This document shows positions 17,072-23,307 of a stretch of 60,451 bases of DNA, piece by piece (positions within the stretch are counted from its first letter, which is position 1; each line of letters opens with the position of its first letter). The notes below the pieces were generated by a model. It searched no databases. It worked only from the letters and a program-made list of their open reading frames with translations, and was not told the DNA's origin. The translations under genes and the position numbers were made by a program. The DNA is taken from NCBI GenBank assembly GCA_029246085.1, contig JAQWOB010000011.1:1-60451 (forward strand), read 5' to 3'. The stretch is from Gammaproteobacteria bacterium (GTDB taxonomy: Bacteria > Pseudomonadota > Gammaproteobacteria > GCA-002705445 > GCA-002716945).

Positions 17072-18067
17072 TTAACCTATCTCTTTCTTTATATTATTAA
17101 GGGGCTCATTAAGTATAAAGGAGGCCACAAGGATTTCAAGTTTGTGCCAAACATTAAAGTTACCAAATCCTGTTTTAATCCTTCTGTCAATTACATAAGA
17201 AAATTCTATTAGGCCTAACAAATTATCGCTATTAGATTGACGTGACAAATTACTATATAAGATTTTTTTATGATTAGGAACATATGGTTGCGGTGACAAA
17301 TTATTTAATAAATAATATATTTTCTTAATTTCACTATTTATTAAAAATAATATATATACCTCTGGTGACTTTACTGATTCTAAATAATTTAATATCTTTA
17401 TAGCCTTAGCCACATTTAGTTCTAATATTGCATCAATTAAATCATACTCTGTAAACTTATATTCCTTTTGAAGATAATTAAAATAAACAGATATATCTGA
17501 TATATTCAATAAGGACATTTTATATAATTCTTGTGAAATTGAAGATGTGTTTCCCTCATTCTTCTGTATTAACTTTTTAAAAAGTTCATCACTATAGGTA
17601 ATATTATTTTTTTTGAACTTTTGTTTTACCCAGTTATTAAGGTGTATCCCCTTAAGTTCTGATATCTCTATAATGCATCCTTCTGAATTTAACATAGATA
17701 AAAATTTACCTCTTTTGAAAGCAGGGGTCTGCGGCCCTAATTTAATAATTAAATTTAAATCTTTAGGTGCCTTATTAATTAATAGATAATCAAGTAATTT
17801 TTTTGGGATAGTATTAGATACTACATTCAAAATAAGAGATTTTTTTTCTTCAAAAAGAGAATAACTTTCAAAGTCATCTCTTATTTCATAAATATCAAAG
17901 TCAGAATCAACCACTAAATGTTTTATAGAAGAGCCGCTTTTTTTAAAAAAAGACTCTAGTCTAGACTGAATATCATTCTGTAAATGATAAGGTTTTCCTA
18001 AAATCAAATAAATAGATGATTCTGGTATTTCTGGGCTATCAAAGAATTGTTTGTAACTAATTTTCAT
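17072..18067 (-). CDS. holA: DNA polymerase III delta subunit
   Basis: Sequence and length are HolA-like. I chose the ATG at 18065-18067 (MKISYKQFF..., 331 aa). The longer track ORF (to 18193) would overlap the divergent gene. The stop abuts the proA start with no gap. Confidence 0.7.
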   Translation of the reverse strand: MKISYKQFFDSPEIPESSIYLILGKPYHLQNDIQSRLESFFKKSGSSIKHLVVDSDFDIYEIRDDFESYSLFEEKKSLILNVVSNTIPKKLLDYLLINKAPKDLNLIIKLGPQTPAFKRGKFLSMLNSEGCIIEISELKGIHLNNWVKQKFKKNNITYSDELFKKLIQKNEGNTSSISQELYKMSLLNISDISVYFNYLQKEYKFTEYDLIDAILELNVAKAIKILNYLESVKSPEVYILFLINSEIKKIYYLLNNLSPQPYVPNHKKILYSNLSRQSNSDNLLGLIEFSYVIDRRIKTGFGNFNVWHKLEILVASFILNEPLNNIKKEIG

Positions 18068-18100
18068 ATGATAAATTCTATGGATTCTATACAATATATC

Positions 18101-18991
18101 ATGGATATAAAAAAAGCTCATAATGAAATTGGCTACATTGGCCTTGGTATAATGGGGAAACCCATGGTTAGAAACCTCATTACAGCAAAGCATAAGATTG
18201 TGTTTTATGCCAGAAAAGCTAATGTAATTAAAGAAATATCTTCTATAGGTGGCAGATATGCAGATAATATTCCTGAAATATCTAAATCATGTAAAATTAT
18301 ATTTTTAAACCTACCTGACTCGAATGATGTTCATGAGGTAATCTTTAGTAAAACAGGTTTAGTTTCCAACTTATCCAAAGGATCTATAATAATTGATATG
18401 AGCACAATCTCACCCGAAGTTACGAAAAAAATGGCAAAAAAATTAGAAAAGAAAAGTTGCTATTTGATTGATGCCCCAGTATCGGGAGGTGAGATTGGCG
18501 CAATCAATGGAAACTTATCGATCATGGTTGGTGGCAAAAAAAATGTATTTAATAAAATTAAGCACCTCCTATCAGTATTAGGCAACAATATAACATATAT
18601 AGGACATAGTGGATCAGGACAAGTTACGAAAGCATGCAATCAAATCCTCGTAGCGGGAACAATGGTATCGGTTAGTGAAATATTATTGCTAGCAAAAAAA
18701 TTAAAATGTGATTTAAATTTAGTGAAAAAAGCTTTAATGGGAGGATTTGCAAATAGTAAAATTCTTGATTTACATGGCGAGAGAATGATAAACAATGATT
18801 ATGAGCCTGGTTTTAAAGCAGGACTTCATTTAAAAGACTTGAATATTGCATTGAATTTATCAGATAAAGTTGGATTAAACCTTAAGAGTGCAAAATATAG
18901 TCAGGAACTAATGAAAATTGCTAATCAGAACAATGACCAAGATAAAGACTCATCTATAATTAATAAAATTATCATTAAGAATAAGAAATAA
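18101..18991 (+). CDS. NAD(P)-dependent 3-hydroxyisobutyrate / tartronate-semialdehyde dehydrogenase family oxidoreductase
   Basis: Rossmann N-terminus IGYIGLGIMGKPMVRNL, plus DAPVSGG and the GSGQVTKACNQ signature. The start is set at the ATG nearest the GxGxxG motif. Confidence 0.85.
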   Translation: MDIKKAHNEIGYIGLGIMGKPMVRNLITAKHKIVFYARKANVIKEISSIGGRYADNIPEISKSCKIIFLNLPDSNDVHEVIFSKTGLVSNLSKGSIIIDMSTISPEVTKKMAKKLEKKSCYLIDAPVSGGEIGAINGNLSIMVGGKKNVFNKIKHLLSVLGNNITYIGHSGSGQVTKACNQILVAGTMVSVSEILLLAKKLKCDLNLVKKALMGGFANSKILDLHGERMINNDYEPGFKAGLHLKDLNIALNLSDKVGLNLKSAKYSQELMKIANQNNDQDKDSSIINKIIIKNKK

Positions 18992-19009
18992 AGTGTTTAA
19001 TATTTAAAC

Positions 19010-19423
19010 ATGAAATTATATAATATCTCTATGAATATTAAATATTTGCTGAAAGATAAGAGTATAAATCCCACAAAACAGCGTTTAGAAATTGCTGAGC
19101 TTGTTTTTGCTAAAGATCAACATTTTACCGCAGTCCAGCTCATAGAACAGGTTAGAGATAAGAAGTTACCTATATCACAAGCAACCATATACAATACACT
19201 GTGTCTTTTTGAATCAACTGGATTGTTAAAAACTATTGATTTACAAAATGACTGTAAATTTTATGATACAAATTTACACTCACATCATCATATATATAAC
19301 ACTAGCACTAATGTACTAACCGATATAAGTACTGAGAAGATAGAATTCTCAAAAATTCCAAGTATTCCAGCTCACTTAGAGCTAGAACAAACGGAAGTAT
19401 TGATTAAAGTTAAAAATAAATAA
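19010..19423 (+). CDS. irr: Fur-family transcriptional regulator, Irr-like (no CxxC pairs, HHH motif)
   Basis: 137 aa. The winged-helix part is PTKQRLEIAELVF...ISQATIYNTL. FYDTNLHSHHHIY sits where Fur has HHHDH..C..C. There are no CxxC zinc motifs. An alternative start is ATG 19031. Confidence 0.75.
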   Translation: MKLYNISMNIKYLLKDKSINPTKQRLEIAELVFAKDQHFTAVQLIEQVRDKKLPISQATIYNTLCLFESTGLLKTIDLQNDCKFYDTNLHSHHHIYNTSTNVLTDISTEKIEFSKIPSIPAHLELEQTEVLIKVKNK

Positions 19424-19427
19424 TACT

Positions 19428-20009
19428 TTACTCAAAATCATTTAATAATGCAGATTTTGTTTCACTACCTATCTTTATATCACTAGAATAACTATCATGC
19501 GTGGCACCAAAAACAATATTATCAGAAGATTTAAATTTCTCTATGCTATCACTATCAAGTTGAAACCTTAAAAAGTGGACAGCTGATGTTTTTGCATCTC
19601 TAGTTCTTTCGAGATCTTCATCTGAAACTGCAAATATTCTTTTAGAATTATCAATACATAAATAAATACTATTTTCTAAGTCATGTAATTTTTTTAACAT
19701 AACCCTACGCTCTTCTATATCTGGATACATAATAAGCATTGTTGCTTTTAAATTATCTCCATCAGGTATCAATGACGTATAGGCTGAAATTTCCTCATTA
19801 ATATCTGATTCTTTGGATATCTTCTCAATTCTCAACATCTCATGAACCTGATACTTTATCGTATCAAAATCTTCAAATAATAATAATATATTTTCCCCAA
19901 TCATGATTGATCGGTTTTTTTTATGAAGCAATAAGTCAGACTTAATCTGTTCTCTTCCTTTCTCATAATCCTCTAATGATAATAAATTTTTATTTGTTAA
20001 CTCTTTCAT
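19428..20009 (-). CDS. DUF3501 family protein
   Basis: 193 aa. Motifs I remember from DUF3501 are present: LSLEDYEKGR, HKKNR, YQVHEMLRIE, LIPDGDNLKAT and KTSAVHFLRF. It lies 12 nt downstream of the Fe-S protein gene. Confidence 0.7.
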   Translation of the reverse strand: MKELTNKNLLSLEDYEKGREQIKSDLLLHKKNRSIMIGENILLLFEDFDTIKYQVHEMLRIEKISKESDINEEISAYTSLIPDGDNLKATMLIMYPDIEERRVMLKKLHDLENSIYLCIDNSKRIFAVSDEDLERTRDAKTSAVHFLRFQLDSDSIEKFKSSDNIVFGATHDSYSSDIKIGSETKSALLNDFE

Positions 20010-20021
20010 TTTATAATCTCC

Positions 20022-21332
20022 TTATTGTAATCCGTAAGCCTTTCTCATTAATTCAATTGGATGGGTAGGTAATACCTTATTCCCCATTGCGTTAACCACA
20101 TGATGTGCCGCTAATGTACAATCACTAGTGAATTGAGTTGACTGTAATTTTGTATATTCTTTAACTATCGGCATCGCAATCTTTATTGCTATCTCATGAG
20201 TTTCTTTTTTTACACCATACGTCCCATCATGACCAGAACACCTTTCTAAAGCATCTATATTTGTATTAGGGACAAGCTCAAGTATCTTTTTAGTTACCTG
20301 CCCTATGTTTTGTACTCTCTGATGGCAGGCTACTTGATAAAAAACAGAACCCAAATCATTTTTAAAATCCCTCTTTAATGTGCCTTCATTATAAAGTTTT
20401 AATAAGTATTCAAATGGATCACATATCGCCTTAGATACTAATTGTACATCCCTGTTTTCTGGGAAAAGTAGTGGGAGTTCTTGTTTAAACATCAGAACGC
20501 ATGAGGGAACTGGAGCGATGATTCTATAACCATCCTTAGCATATTTTTTAAATTTTAAAAGATTATGTTGCATCATTTTTTCTACAGTCTTAAGATCTCC
20601 TAATTCTAATTTAGGCATGCCACAACACTTATCATCTTTAATTAACTCCACATGAACATTGTTATGCTTTAATACTTTTACCAAGTCATCAATTACACTT
20701 GGTTCATTATAGTTATGATAACAAGTTGTAAATATTGCCACCTTATTATCCAAATTCATTTCATTTGAAATATTCTTATACTTAGATTTTGCGGTATAAG
20801 ACGAAAACTTTGGGAGTTTAGCATTTCTATGAATGCGTAAAATTTTTTCTAAAATTATTCTAAATATTTTTATTTCATTAAAATAATTTATGATAGGAGC
20901 TATTATTTTACGAGACCCTAATTTCCCTAACATATCTGTAGAAGTTAGAATTTTATCTCTAATTGAAGTCTTTGACTTACTATGTTTAATAGCCTTCCCT
21001 CTTAACATTAAATGAGGGAAATCTATACCCCAGTCATGCGGAGGCACATATGGACATTTTGTCAGGTAACATAAATCACAAAGGTAACAATGATCTATAA
21101 CCTTATCAAATTGATCATATGTAACACCATCAACTTCAAAAGTTTTAGATTCATCTATTAAGTCAAATAATGTTGGAAAAGAATTACACAGACTTACGCA
21201 CCGTCTACATCCATGACAGTGATCAGAAACTCTTCGTAACTCTTTTTCAAATAGTTCTTCGTTTAGATAATCTTGATTCTTCCAATCAATGCTAAATCTT
21301 GTTGGTTTTTGTAACCCACCTTCCATATTCAT
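20022..21332 (-). CDS. HdrD/GlpC-like (Fe-S)-binding protein with two ferredoxin-type motifs and CCG (DUF224) domains
   Basis: 436 aa with CHGCRRCVSLCNSFP and CYLCDLCYLTKCPYVPP. It has a CCGMP motif and a second, degenerate Cys-rich domain (CSGHDG ... SDC). Confidence 0.85.
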   Translation of the reverse strand: MNMEGGLQKPTRFSIDWKNQDYLNEELFEKELRRVSDHCHGCRRCVSLCNSFPTLFDLIDESKTFEVDGVTYDQFDKVIDHCYLCDLCYLTKCPYVPPHDWGIDFPHLMLRGKAIKHSKSKTSIRDKILTSTDMLGKLGSRKIIAPIINYFNEIKIFRIILEKILRIHRNAKLPKFSSYTAKSKYKNISNEMNLDNKVAIFTTCYHNYNEPSVIDDLVKVLKHNNVHVELIKDDKCCGMPKLELGDLKTVEKMMQHNLLKFKKYAKDGYRIIAPVPSCVLMFKQELPLLFPENRDVQLVSKAICDPFEYLLKLYNEGTLKRDFKNDLGSVFYQVACHQRVQNIGQVTKKILELVPNTNIDALERCSGHDGTYGVKKETHEIAIKIAMPIVKEYTKLQSTQFTSDCTLAAHHVVNAMGNKVLPTHPIELMRKAYGLQ

Positions 21333-21361
21333 TCTCCGTGAAATATAAGTAAGTCCTGAAA

Positions 21362-21388
21362 TGTCCCCTCAATAATATCAAGGGGACA
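21362..21388 (-). terminator. GC-rich hairpin between the rubrerythrin and Fe-S protein genes (partial terminator or mRNA-stabilising stem)
   Basis: TGTCCCCT (21362-21369) pairs with AGGGGACA (21381-21388) across an 11-nt loop. On the sense (minus) strand it is followed by AUUUC. It starts 9 nt after the rubrerythrin stop. Confidence 0.4.
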
Positions 21389-21396
21389 AATATTAT

Positions 21397-21816
21397 TTAT
21401 GCCATTGCTTCCAATGCTTTGGTAAACCTATTTGCATGTGAACGCTCAGCTTTTGCTAGTGTCTCAAACCAGTCAGCTATCTCATCAAAACCTTCGTCTC
21501 GAGCAGCTTTAGCCATACCAGGATACATGTCAGTGTATTCATGAGTTTCTCCTGCAATTGCAGCTTTCAAATTCATTTCACTGCTCCCTATTGGTTCACC
21601 AGTAGCTGGATCACCACACTCTTTCTCCAAATACTCTAAATGACCATGTGCATGTCCGGTCTCACCTTCAGCAGTAGACCTAAATACAGATGCCACATCA
21701 TTTTGTCCTTCAACATCAGCTTTTGCTGCGAAGTAAAGATATCTTCTATTTGCTTGTGATTCACCAGCAAATGCATCTTTAAGATTTTGTTCTGTTTTTG
21801 AACCTTTTAAACCCAT
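21397..21816 (-). CDS. Rubrerythrin-family diiron protein without a rubredoxin domain
   Basis: 139 aa four-helix-bundle protein with duplicated E...ExxH ligands (GESQAN...[10 protein letters not shown]; GETHEY...KAERSH). A strong SD (AAGGAG) precedes it. It is visibly more GC-rich than its neighbours. Confidence 0.9.
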
Positions 21817-21879
21817 AATATTTCTCCTTATTATTTAATAAATAATCTAAAATAGTTATTAACCAAGATTAATAAATCT

Positions 21880-21898
21880 ATTTAGAATCATTCTAAAT
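21880..21898. promoter_or_regulatory. Candidate Irr operator (iron control element, ICE)
   Basis: Perfect 19-bp palindrome ATTTAGAATCATTCTAAAT. Its core TTTAGAA-TCA-TTCTAAA equals the ICE consensus TTTAGAA-N3-TTCTAAA. It lies 64 nt upstream of the rubrerythrin ATG in the rbr/pyrD divergent spacer. Confidence 0.6.
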
Positions 21899-21947
21899 TT
21901 TATAATAATAAGTGTCAATAGTAATATGTTAAACTAACAAACATAAC

Positions 21948-21960
21948 AATGATTATCATT
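21948..21960. promoter_or_regulatory. Fur-box-like palindrome
   Basis: AATGATTATCATT is a perfect 6-1-6 inverted repeat. It is identical to the core of the classical Fur box (AATGAT-A-ATCATT) except for the unpaired centre. It lies 15 nt upstream of the pyrD ATG. Confidence 0.4.
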
Positions 21961-21974
21961 CTCAATTGCAAATT

Positions 21975-23004: not shown

Positions 23005-23307
23005 TTATTTAGGAGTCCATTTTCCGAAAGAATCTTGTGCTGACTGAGGATTAGTTGATGCTTCGGGACCACTAGAACTTGTTCCAGCTTTGCGTTGCTC
23101 CTCATAAACATACTTAATGAAATCAATTAGTTGGCTTAAAATATCATTTTGGTCCTTTTCAGGTATTCCAGATGTAGCAACAATAGAACCTACTACTGCA
23201 GAAAGATACTGCGCTGCTAAAATAGGGTCTTCATTTTCAGGCTCATAATCAACCAAAACCTTTTGAAGGCCTTTAATTAACTCTGGTTTTAAAACAATCT
23301 CTGCCAT
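23005..23307 (-). CDS. Hypothetical 100-aa protein with a low-complexity Ser/Pro/Gln-rich tail
   Basis: The ORF fills the whole gap between the convergent pyrD and the divergent MBL gene. The N-terminal ~70 aa look helical and the C-terminus (AGTSSSGPEASTNPQSAQ) looks disordered. No family was recognised with confidence. Confidence 0.5.
   Translation of the reverse strand: MAEIVLKPELIKGLQKVLVDYEPENEDPILAAQYLSAVVGSIVATSGIPEKDQNDILSQLIDFIKYVYEEQRKAGTSSSGPEASTNPQSAQDSFGKWTPK

Follow-up and report, generated by a model that had tools for sequence, protein, structure and literature searches.

We analysed a 60,451-nucleotide stretch of contig JAQWOB010000011.1 (hereafter the window; ∼30% GC), in which three neighboring genes on the reverse strand encode a rubrerythrin (RBR; gene rbr), an Fe-S protein with CCG-type cysteine-rich domains (RFO), and a DUF3501 protein. 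The open reading frame (ORF) list places 64 nt between rbr and RFO and 12 nt between RFO and DUF3501; the DUF3501 gene lies 1.4 kb downstream of rbr on the same strand. An earlier reading of the window from its letters, which we call the sequence-only reading, had described three co-directional genes with these same gaps, and the identities it gave them (rubredoxin-less rubrerythrin, CCG Fe-S protein, and DUF3501) are borne out by matches to PF02915, PF02754, and PF12007, respectively. The three genes are as follows.

21397..21816, reverse strand: rbr, ORF of 139 aa, a rubredoxin-less "aerobic-type" rubrerythrin and predicted di-iron peroxidase component
20022..21332, reverse strand: RFO gene, ORF of 436 aa, with two 4Fe-4S motifs and CCG domains
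19428..20009, reverse strand: DUF3501 gene, ORF of 193 aa, PF12007

The trio is another member of a known, named, and partly characterized system, and the proposal that it is an undescribed one does not hold. Cardenas, Quatrini and Holmes (2016) named it the "aerobic-type RBR" system and its Fe-S protein RFO, counted the triple co-occurrence in 185 of 4461 genomes and RBR with DUF3501 only in 25, Thermoproteales included, described DUF3501-RFO fusions in Nitrosomonas, and suggested that RFO compensates for the lost rubredoxin domain (PMC5114695). The trio has since been reported in protist mitochondria, those of Andalucia godoyi among them (Gray et al. 2020, PMC7050145), adjoining OxyR in Sideroxydans (Zamkovaya et al. 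2020, PMC7852563), and in a 2025 structural preprint on the B. pseudomallei rubrerythrin (BpRbr), where the operon partners as electron-transfer partner are still a hypothesis only (PMC12154734). The window holds what defines the 2016 system, namely, a rubredoxin-less di-iron RBR, a co-localized DUF3501 gene, and a co-localized CCG-type RFO distinct from GlpC. The three families, the gene order, and the missing rubredoxin domain are the same and nothing essential differs; the window RBR is ∼85% identical to the beta- and gammaproteobacterial members. Particular to the window are its low-GC, uncultured marine gammaproteobacterial host, an adjacent Irr-like regulator, and a perfect ICE operator. 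How a rubredoxin-less rubrerythrin is re-reduced in vivo is a question that the field already acknowledges.

The three proteins

The sole real domain match of RBR in Pfam is PF02915 (E 4.7e-29), and no rubredoxin domain is present. Against the NCBIfam rubrerythrin model NF045767, the protein scores 130.5 bits (cutoff 200) with profile positions 4-143 of 194 matched; the missing rubredoxin domain is what keeps it under this classical-rubrerythrin cutoff. The sequence lacks a CxxC pair, and its lone Cys, C67, is not conserved among 68 orthologues. All seven di-iron ligands are present (E19, E52, H55, E90, E93, E124, and H127). With the conservation threshold set at ≥97% of the 68 orthologues, these ligands are conserved, as are the motif Cys residues of RFO, and 80 of the 139 RBR residues reach the threshold, the ligands among them. 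This constraint is unusually strong for a small enzyme and fits a surface largely committed to a domain-swapped dimer and to partners. The PDB matches are the B. pseudomallei protein (9onm/4di0, E 1e-73) and sulerythrin (1j30, E 6e-51); judged by these alignments, the window RBR is nearly identical to the crystallized BpRbr and close to sulerythrin.

Ferriperoxin from Hydrogenobacter thermophilus and sulerythrin from Sulfolobus tokodaii belong to the same RBR lineage and carry the same di-iron ligands, and peroxidase activity has been demonstrated in both, although with surrogate donors (FNR plus NADPH) or with isolated protein, the RFO and DUF3501 partners being left out. Ferriperoxin is an NADPH/FNR-dependent peroxidase, and aerobic growth requires it (Sato et al. 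2012, PMC3317640). The sequence-only reading knew of no experimental characterization, which is correct for RFO and DUF3501, on which the literature searched yielded no experiments, but not for RBR, given the ferriperoxin peroxidase and the crystal structures of sulerythrin and BpRbr. The classical rubrerythrins of Desulfovibrio and Pyrococcus are likewise four-helix-bundle di-iron peroxidases that receive single electrons from an iron-based relay. Their relay consists of a fused FeCys4 rubredoxin domain, a soluble rubredoxin, and a flavoprotein (NADH:rubredoxin oxidoreductase), whereas the candidate relay in the window is a multi-cluster CCG protein with an orphan-fold subunit. The window RBR has neither the C-terminal FeCys4 domain nor the score above 200 bits that mark the classical type.

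RFO matches the CCG family PF02754 (9.4e-15) and gives weak 4Fe-4S dicluster matches in Pfam. Two CxxCxxCxxxC motifs had been read in it; the first is present as such (C39xxC42xxC45xxxC49), while the second is CxxCxxCxxxxC, with a four-residue spacer (C82xxC85xxC88xxxxC93). The first CCG domain contributes C204, C236, C237, and C278, and the second, which is degenerate, C336, C365, and C405. Across 68 sequences, 15 Cys are invariant or near-invariant, comprising the two 4Fe-4S motifs and the 4 + 3 Cys of the CCG domains. No transmembrane segment was found (highest 19-residue Kyte-Doolittle-type hydropathy, KD19, 1.34), the Pfam and NCBIfam scans gave no flavin or NAD domain, and the PDB yielded no match to RFO, whether searched by sequence or by profile. 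The top NCBIfam match is GlpC at 227 bits (cutoff 278), with a second GlpC model at 163 (cutoff 280). Identity to E. coli GlpC is 27%, and the second CCG element of RFO reads CSG...CTLA where that of E. coli GlpC is intact (CCG...CETC).

The architecture of two [4Fe-4S] motifs plus CCG domains, and the fold, are common to RFO and EtfD, HdrD, GlpC, and LutA. The RFO part of a natural RFO-DUF3501 fusion model structurally resembles LutA, the soluble module of mycobacterial EtfD (9ojn, 409 aligned columns), and HdrB (TM about 0.6). Unlike EtfD and HdrDE, RFO has no membrane or heme b domain, and it comes without GlpAB or LutBC partners. The five-helix heme b membrane domain of the EtfD type is lacking, the soluble module alone aligning; the two CX31-39CCX35-36CXXC motifs of HdrD/HdrB, with five Cys each, are replaced by the 4 + 3 pattern, and no Hdr partner gene lies nearby. 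As for GlpC, the scores are below cutoff, the window contains no glpA or glpB, and the second CCG is incomplete. RFO is related to HdrB and is not a member of the HdrB/HdrD family. The two CCG domains of EtfD carry one linear [3Fe-4S] and one noncubane [4Fe-4S] cluster, which together with the cubane clusters conduct electrons from ETF to the quinone pool along a solvent-shielded route, a pure Fe-S wire suited to aerobic conditions (PMC13083937). Because this homologous module is a shielded wire, we consider by analogy that a wire role for RFO is more likely than HdrD-type thiol chemistry.

Two invariant stretches of RFO have no counterpart in E. coli GlpC. The family-specific motif CPYVPPHxW..DFPH occupies residues 93-107 (about 21012-21056), directly after the second 4Fe-4S motif, and EG.L..P.R....W occupies residues 4-17 at the N-terminus. 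Both are candidate partner-docking or cluster-tuning elements.

The DUF3501 protein matches PF12007 over its full length in Pfam (E 4e-60) and, in the PDB, the unannotated crystal structure of its own family, 3FJV (E 3.7e-44). A Foldseek search with its AlphaFold2 model (pLDDT 94.8) returned only 3FJV, all other matches having a TM of ≤0.31, which marks an orphan fold with no functional analogy. Its conserved residues are mostly charged or polar (e.g., R19, R33, E46, Q54, E57, Y77, H145, and H171), with no conserved Cys, and no recognizable cofactor site was found. In more than 100 clusters of natural fusions, Nitrosomonas proteins of 656-668 aa, RFO forms the N-terminal and DUF3501 the C-terminal part; the fusion model (pLDDT 81, pTM 0.63) contains a disordered linker of 22 residues. 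In the window, the DUF3501 gene has its Shine-Dalgarno AGGAG 7 nt ahead of the ATG, in overlap with the stop codon of RFO. To the extent that fusion and gene coupling can establish it, RFO and DUF3501 are shown to be a single physical unit, and we propose DUF3501 as the partner or adaptor subunit of RFO, a role assigned by elimination because the protein has an orphan fold and neither a conserved Cys nor a cofactor site.

The trio across genomes and the stem-loop after rbr

For the census, one genome per species was scanned with an alignment of 12 DUF3501 sequences, and the best 80 loci were kept, none of them a Pelagibacter locus. Gene order was counted at the 68 loci with ≥2.2 kb of upstream sequence. 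The arrangement rbr-RFO-DUF3501, with order and strand unchanged, is found at 64 of these 68 loci; rbr with DUF3501 and no RFO is found at two, and DUF3501 alone at two. This is far beyond chance, and the adjacency in beta- and gammaproteobacteria that the sequence-only reading had mentioned is supported by this neighborhood and co-occurrence analysis. Outside the window's own clade, RBR has a median identity of 85% to its window counterpart, RFO 49%, and DUF3501 44%. The median gaps across loci are 90 nt (rbr-RFO) and 15 nt (RFO-DUF3501). The closest locus belongs to an uncultured marine Gammaproteobacteria metagenome-assembled genome (MAG; L001), with 98% identity and complete synteny. A SAR11 origin, which the 30% GC, the Irr-like gene, and the Pelagibacter literature had suggested, was rejected in view of this match and of the lack of Pelagibacter among the 80 loci.

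The exceptions concern DUF3501. L014 and L045 hold rbr and DUF3501 without RFO, and at L019 and L024 DUF3501 stands alone between rppH and proB. In some Burkholderiales-type genomes, DUF3501 lies at the conserved rppH/proB site, with or without rbr, and with no RFO within 5 kb. The genomes that have RBR and DUF3501 without RFO imply a role for DUF3501 for which a neighboring RFO is not strictly required.

In the window, rbr is followed by a stem-loop.

21362..21388, reverse strand: 12-bp stem-loop, UGUCCCCUUGAU-auu-AUUGAGGGGACA, just past the rbr stop codon

Its centroid fold has an energy of -16.5 kcal/mol, the z-score of the 81-nt segment being only -1.44, and a simple terminator scan did not call it, the T-run being absent. 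When a stem is defined as a perfect stem of ≥6 bp within 70 nt past a stop codon, one follows rbr at 57 of 71 loci (median 11 bp), compared with 8 of 70 past RFO and 40 of 73 past DUF3501, the operon end. A T-run comes after 18 of the 57 post-rbr stems. Since the stem sequences vary between loci, it is the structure that is conserved and not the sequence. We regard the post-rbr stem-loop as a candidate leaky terminator/attenuator or mRNA-stability element that would uncouple rbr from the two downstream genes. Taken with the gap sizes, the Shine-Dalgarno overlap, and the fusions, it would indicate, as far as sequence features go, an abundant RBR and a lower-copy, coupled RFO-DUF3501 unit.

An Irr-like regulator and a candidate ICE-type operator

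Upstream of rbr, and beyond the other end of the operon, lie features that may point to iron-responsive control.

21881..21897, no strand: ICE/Irr-box palindrome TTTAGAA-N3-TTCTAAA, candidate operator, sequence TTTAGAATCATTCTAAA
21890..21918, reverse strand: best sigma-70-like rbr promoter, TTGACA, 17 nt, TAGAAT; 11 of 12 positions match; a consensus match only
19010..19423, forward strand: Irr-like Fur-family regulator gene, PF01475 3e-18; most homologues start at M8 (19031)

The ICE consensus was taken from Alphaproteobacteria (PMC1698941). TTTAGAATCATTCTAAA is its only perfect match in 60 kb, and 0 of 100 shuffles gave one; in the sister genomes L001-L004, an ICE site with 0-1 mismatch lies upstream of rbr. 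The dedicated operator of the sequence-only reading is real in this sense, and the Irr-like gene adjoins the trio. The rbr -10 hexamer (21895..21890) falls inside the palindrome, and this predicted placement is repressor geometry. The total of promoter-like matches in the rbr region equals the shuffle expectation; the informative feature is the overlap of this one with the ICE site.

The Irr-like protein scores highest against the NCBIfam models IrrA (112 bits, where 150 are required) and Irr (108 bits, where 170 are required), both below cutoff, with PerR and Fur lower. Five orthologues all carry the HHH motif and none has CxxC; an HxH/HHH heme motif and the lack of a structural Cys4 zinc site are hallmarks of Irr, which in other bacteria regulates iron and heme globally. 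The homologues appear in databases as "Fur family iron response transcriptional regulator". Compared with the alphaproteobacterial Irr/ICE regulon (Bradyrhizobium, Rhizobium, and Rhodobacter), the window has an exact operator match, a Fur-family HHH regulator, and a rubrerythrin target as predicted in P. ubique; it differs in its gammaproteobacterial host and in a regulator that stays below the NCBIfam Irr cutoffs. A 2006 comparative study found Irr and ICE only in Alphaproteobacteria, with rubrerythrin as the minimal Irr regulon predicted for Pelagibacter (Rodionov 2006, PMC1698941). We find an Irr-like gene together with an ICE site in four species-level genomes (L001-L004) that form a marine clade of Gammaproteobacteria. 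This pairing may be new in Gammaproteobacteria, a weak claim to novelty since it is measured only against Rodionov 2006 (PMC1698941).

A related palindrome is more widespread. In the 250 nt upstream of rbr, about 26 of 66 genomes have an ICE-like palindrome, tTTAGA(a/c)tnA(g/t)TCTAAa, 20-116 nt before the start codon, while the 620 kb of background taken from these loci has essentially none. The core TTAGA-N5-TCTAA, carried for example by Thioalkalivibrio, Woeseiaceae, and Thiomargarita genomes, occurs in 19 of the 66 upstream regions versus 0 in the background, and the shorter TAGA-N5-TCTA in 28 of 66 versus 4 background matches. The loci (L005, L006, L011, L018, L021, L022, L029, L031, L037, L038, L040, L043, L045-L047, L049, L052, L058, L071, L077, and others) include beta-, gamma-, and alphaproteobacterial MAGs of 27-68% GC, and none has a Fur-family gene within 5 kb. 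This palindrome before rbr, together with the conserved stem-loop after it, may be new. An OxyR-like gene is found within 5 kb at 10 of 66 loci, one of them attaining the OxyR equivalog cutoff, and these loci mostly lack the palindrome. The operon seems to be wired either to the peroxide sensor OxyR or to an ICE-type operator. We also considered the palindrome as an OxyR site, as TAGA-N5-TCTA fits the T-N11-A rule; the scarcity of the palindrome at OxyR-adjacent loci makes this unlikely.

The surroundings of these elements are compact. The irr-like and DUF3501 genes are convergent, with 4 nt and no hairpin separating their stop codons (19423-19428); the two transcripts probably overlap, so that regulator and target operon could interfere with each other in antisense. 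The irr-like gene starts 18-39 nt past a HIBADH-like gene on the same strand, a pairing kept in L001-L004, and the two are probably co-transcribed. The HIBADH-like ORF (2-hydroxy-3-oxopropionate reductase/HIBADH-like) and the irr-like gene together take up 18047-19423 on the forward strand. The listed start of the HIBADH-like ORF, TTG at 18047, overlaps holA; because the NAD-binding domain starts at residue 27, the true start is probably further downstream. On the other side, the ICE site lies within a 149-nt divergent intergenic region (21817-21965) shared with pyrD, which encodes a quinone-dependent dihydroorotate dehydrogenase; the divergence is kept in L001-L004, and the operator could therefore also affect pyrD transcription. 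The order pyrD, rbr-RFO-DUF3501, convergent irr-like gene, and HIBADH-like gene is common to the sister genomes L002-L004.

Between pyrD and an MBL-fold hydrolase gene, a 100-aa ORF (23005-23307, reverse strand) has no Pfam or NCBIfam match. The remaining window genes include nadC, the Mrp antiporter, pmbA/tldD, proA, holA, leuS, lnt, miaB, uvrA, ribosomal proteins, and rpoBC. These are ordinary genes of a core chromosome, and the trio operon lies outside any island. An Rfam scan of the window gave no match.

Re-reduction of the rubrerythrin

We propose, with a confidence slightly better than even, that the trio is a three-component peroxide reductase in which RBR reduces peroxide, RFO-DUF3501 re-reduces RBR, and an Irr-like repressor acts at the ICE operator. 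RBR, a domain-swapped di-iron dimer, would be the abundant catalytic component; its reduced di-iron site would convert H2O2 to water and organic hydroperoxides to the alcohol, chemistry that has been shown in relatives. RFO-DUF3501, made at a lower level, would be a dedicated rubrerythrin reductase that replaces the lost rubredoxin domain. That an Fe-S/CCG protein stands in for rubredoxin as the electron donor, as the sequence-only reading also suggested, is reasonable, but the idea had already been published (PMC5114695). Electrons would pass from the CCG-domain cluster(s) of RFO through its two [4Fe-4S] clusters to RBR, with DUF3501 as a cofactor-less adaptor of novel fold that may dock RBR onto RFO. 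The donor would preferably be the respiratory quinol pool, reached by peripheral membrane contact, followed by a reduced flavoprotein such as ETF and then by a low-molecular-weight thiol. The Irr-like regulator, bound to the ICE operator over the -10 hexamer, would repress transcription, and expression would therefore be released on inactivation of the regulator, which in known Irr proteins is brought about by heme, iron sufficiency, or oxidants.

That the three proteins are functionally linked is supported by the synteny at 64 of 68 loci, the co-occurrence in 185 genomes, the mitochondrial co-inheritance, and the co-induction by H2O2 of rbr and the adjacent glpC-like gene in S. solfataricus (Maaty et al. 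2009, PMC2739297). The OxyR-like gene near 10 of 66 loci supports a peroxide context.

Several points weigh against the proposal. The literature searched holds no report of RFO or DUF3501 binding or reducing RBR, nor, for any member of the system, of peroxide reduction that depends on the partner proteins. Ferriperoxin needs nothing beyond FNR and NADPH in vitro (PMC3317640), and the chemistry can thus proceed without the helper proteins. RBR and DUF3501 occur without RFO in 25 genomes (PMC5114695) and in L014 and L045. DUF3501, with its orphan fold, offers no conserved Cys and no cofactor site, and its adaptor role is reached by elimination. The quinol idea is weakened by the lack of a membrane anchor and of a heme b domain in RFO. 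The pTM of 0.63 and the disordered linker of the fusion model do not establish a fixed RFO-DUF3501 interface. Finally, Pelagibacter rbr mRNA is 1.57-fold up under iron limitation (PMC2864753), a rise opposite to classical Irr repression.

Some of these observations suit a maintenance role, in which RBR is fed by generic reductants of the FNR or ferredoxin type and RFO-DUF3501 loads the correct metal or reactivates damaged or over-oxidized RBR. Such a role would accommodate both the sufficiency of FNR and NADPH for ferriperoxin in vitro and the genomes, including L014 and L045, that do without RFO. The promiscuous binding of Fe, Mn, and Co in the pre-formed site of BpRbr (PMC12154734) makes a specificity factor plausible, and the stem-loop would imply that RFO and DUF3501 are far below the level of RBR, as suits a repair or assembly factor. 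We nevertheless hold this role to be unlikely. Low stoichiometry equally suits a catalytic reductase, a multi-cluster protein with 15 conserved Cys would be an expensive chaperone, and DUF3501 has neither a conserved Cys nor a metallochaperone-type His/Asp/Glu cluster, only H145 and H171 being conserved.

The source of electrons can also be varied within the three-component model. The sequence-only reading suggested thiol chemistry, in which RFO would work as a reversed HdrD: its CCG cluster would oxidize a low-molecular-weight thiol or a protein dithiol, RBR would receive the electrons, and the whole would be a thiol peroxidase. CCG domains are indeed the catalytic disulfide-reducing sites of HdrB/HdrD, HdrB is a fold analogue of RFO, and the thermodynamics are favorable. 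Against this, RFO has 4 + 3 CCG Cys where HdrB has 5 + 5, its second domain having lost the CC pair and the CxxC, and the CCG clusters of aerobic relatives such as EtfD are solvent-shielded wires that perform no thiol chemistry. No thiol-metabolism gene recurs beside the operon at the census loci. To our knowledge, glutathione is absent from several carrier lineages (e.g., Sulfolobales and Aquificae), which we also count against a thiol donor, and we judge the thiol variant quite improbable.

A different starting point is the regulation. If RBR were a ferroxidase or iron buffer in ferritin-less streamlined cells, with RFO-DUF3501 reductively freeing the iron, then the Irr-type control would be explained: Irr regulons classically include iron-storage and -export genes such as bfr and mbfA, Smith et al. 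2010 (PMC2864753) annotate the Pelagibacter rbr as a putative ferroxidase in a genome without ferritin, and RBR belongs to the ferritin-like superfamily. However, a 139-aa dimer has no storage cavity, the characterized members of the lineage are peroxidases with a clear oxidative-stress phenotype, the peroxide sensor OxyR is adjacent at 10 other loci, and the cluster is induced by H2O2 in Sulfolobus. An iron-homeostasis function is very unlikely on this evidence. That the middle gene encodes GlpC, the membrane-anchor subunit of anaerobic glycerol-3-phosphate dehydrogenase, and stands beside rbr incidentally, deserves almost no credence: GlpC is the top NCBIfam match and JGI calls the homologues "glycerol-3-phosphate dehydrogenase subunit C", but this annotation is refuted by the scores under both cutoffs, the 27% identity to E. 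coli GlpC, the degenerate second CCG, the absence of glpA and glpB from the window and from the recurrent neighbors at other loci, and the conserved gene order that joins it to rbr and DUF3501 at 64 of 68 loci.

The three-component peroxide reductase can be extended, tentatively, to a joint claim that we rate as doubtful: RFO-DUF3501 may link the respiratory pool (quinol or ETF-type flavoproteins) to RBR as an H2O2-reducing respiratory branch, and, at the same time, Irr-type or ICE-like (TTAGA-N5-TCTAA) control may extend beyond Alphaproteobacteria. If true, the trio would be a peroxide-directed functional analogue of alternative oxidase that was inherited by early mitochondria, with DUF3501 as a docking subunit of new fold.

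The system is widespread, from aerobic Proteobacteria and thermoacidophilic archaea to abundant marine plankton and the mitochondria of protists. The window poses no new question; it adds constraints on how RBR is re-reduced. RFO and DUF3501 behave as one unit, on the evidence of fusion and tight gene coupling, RBR appears to be expressed separately from them owing to the conserved stem-loop, RFO resembles an aerobic Fe-S wire more than a thiol reductase, and regulation seems to alternate between OxyR adjacency and an ICE-like operator. Confirmation of the Irr/ICE link in gamma- and betaproteobacteria would revise the view of an Alphaproteobacteria-specific regulon and would tie peroxide defense to heme and iron status in streamlined ocean bacteria.

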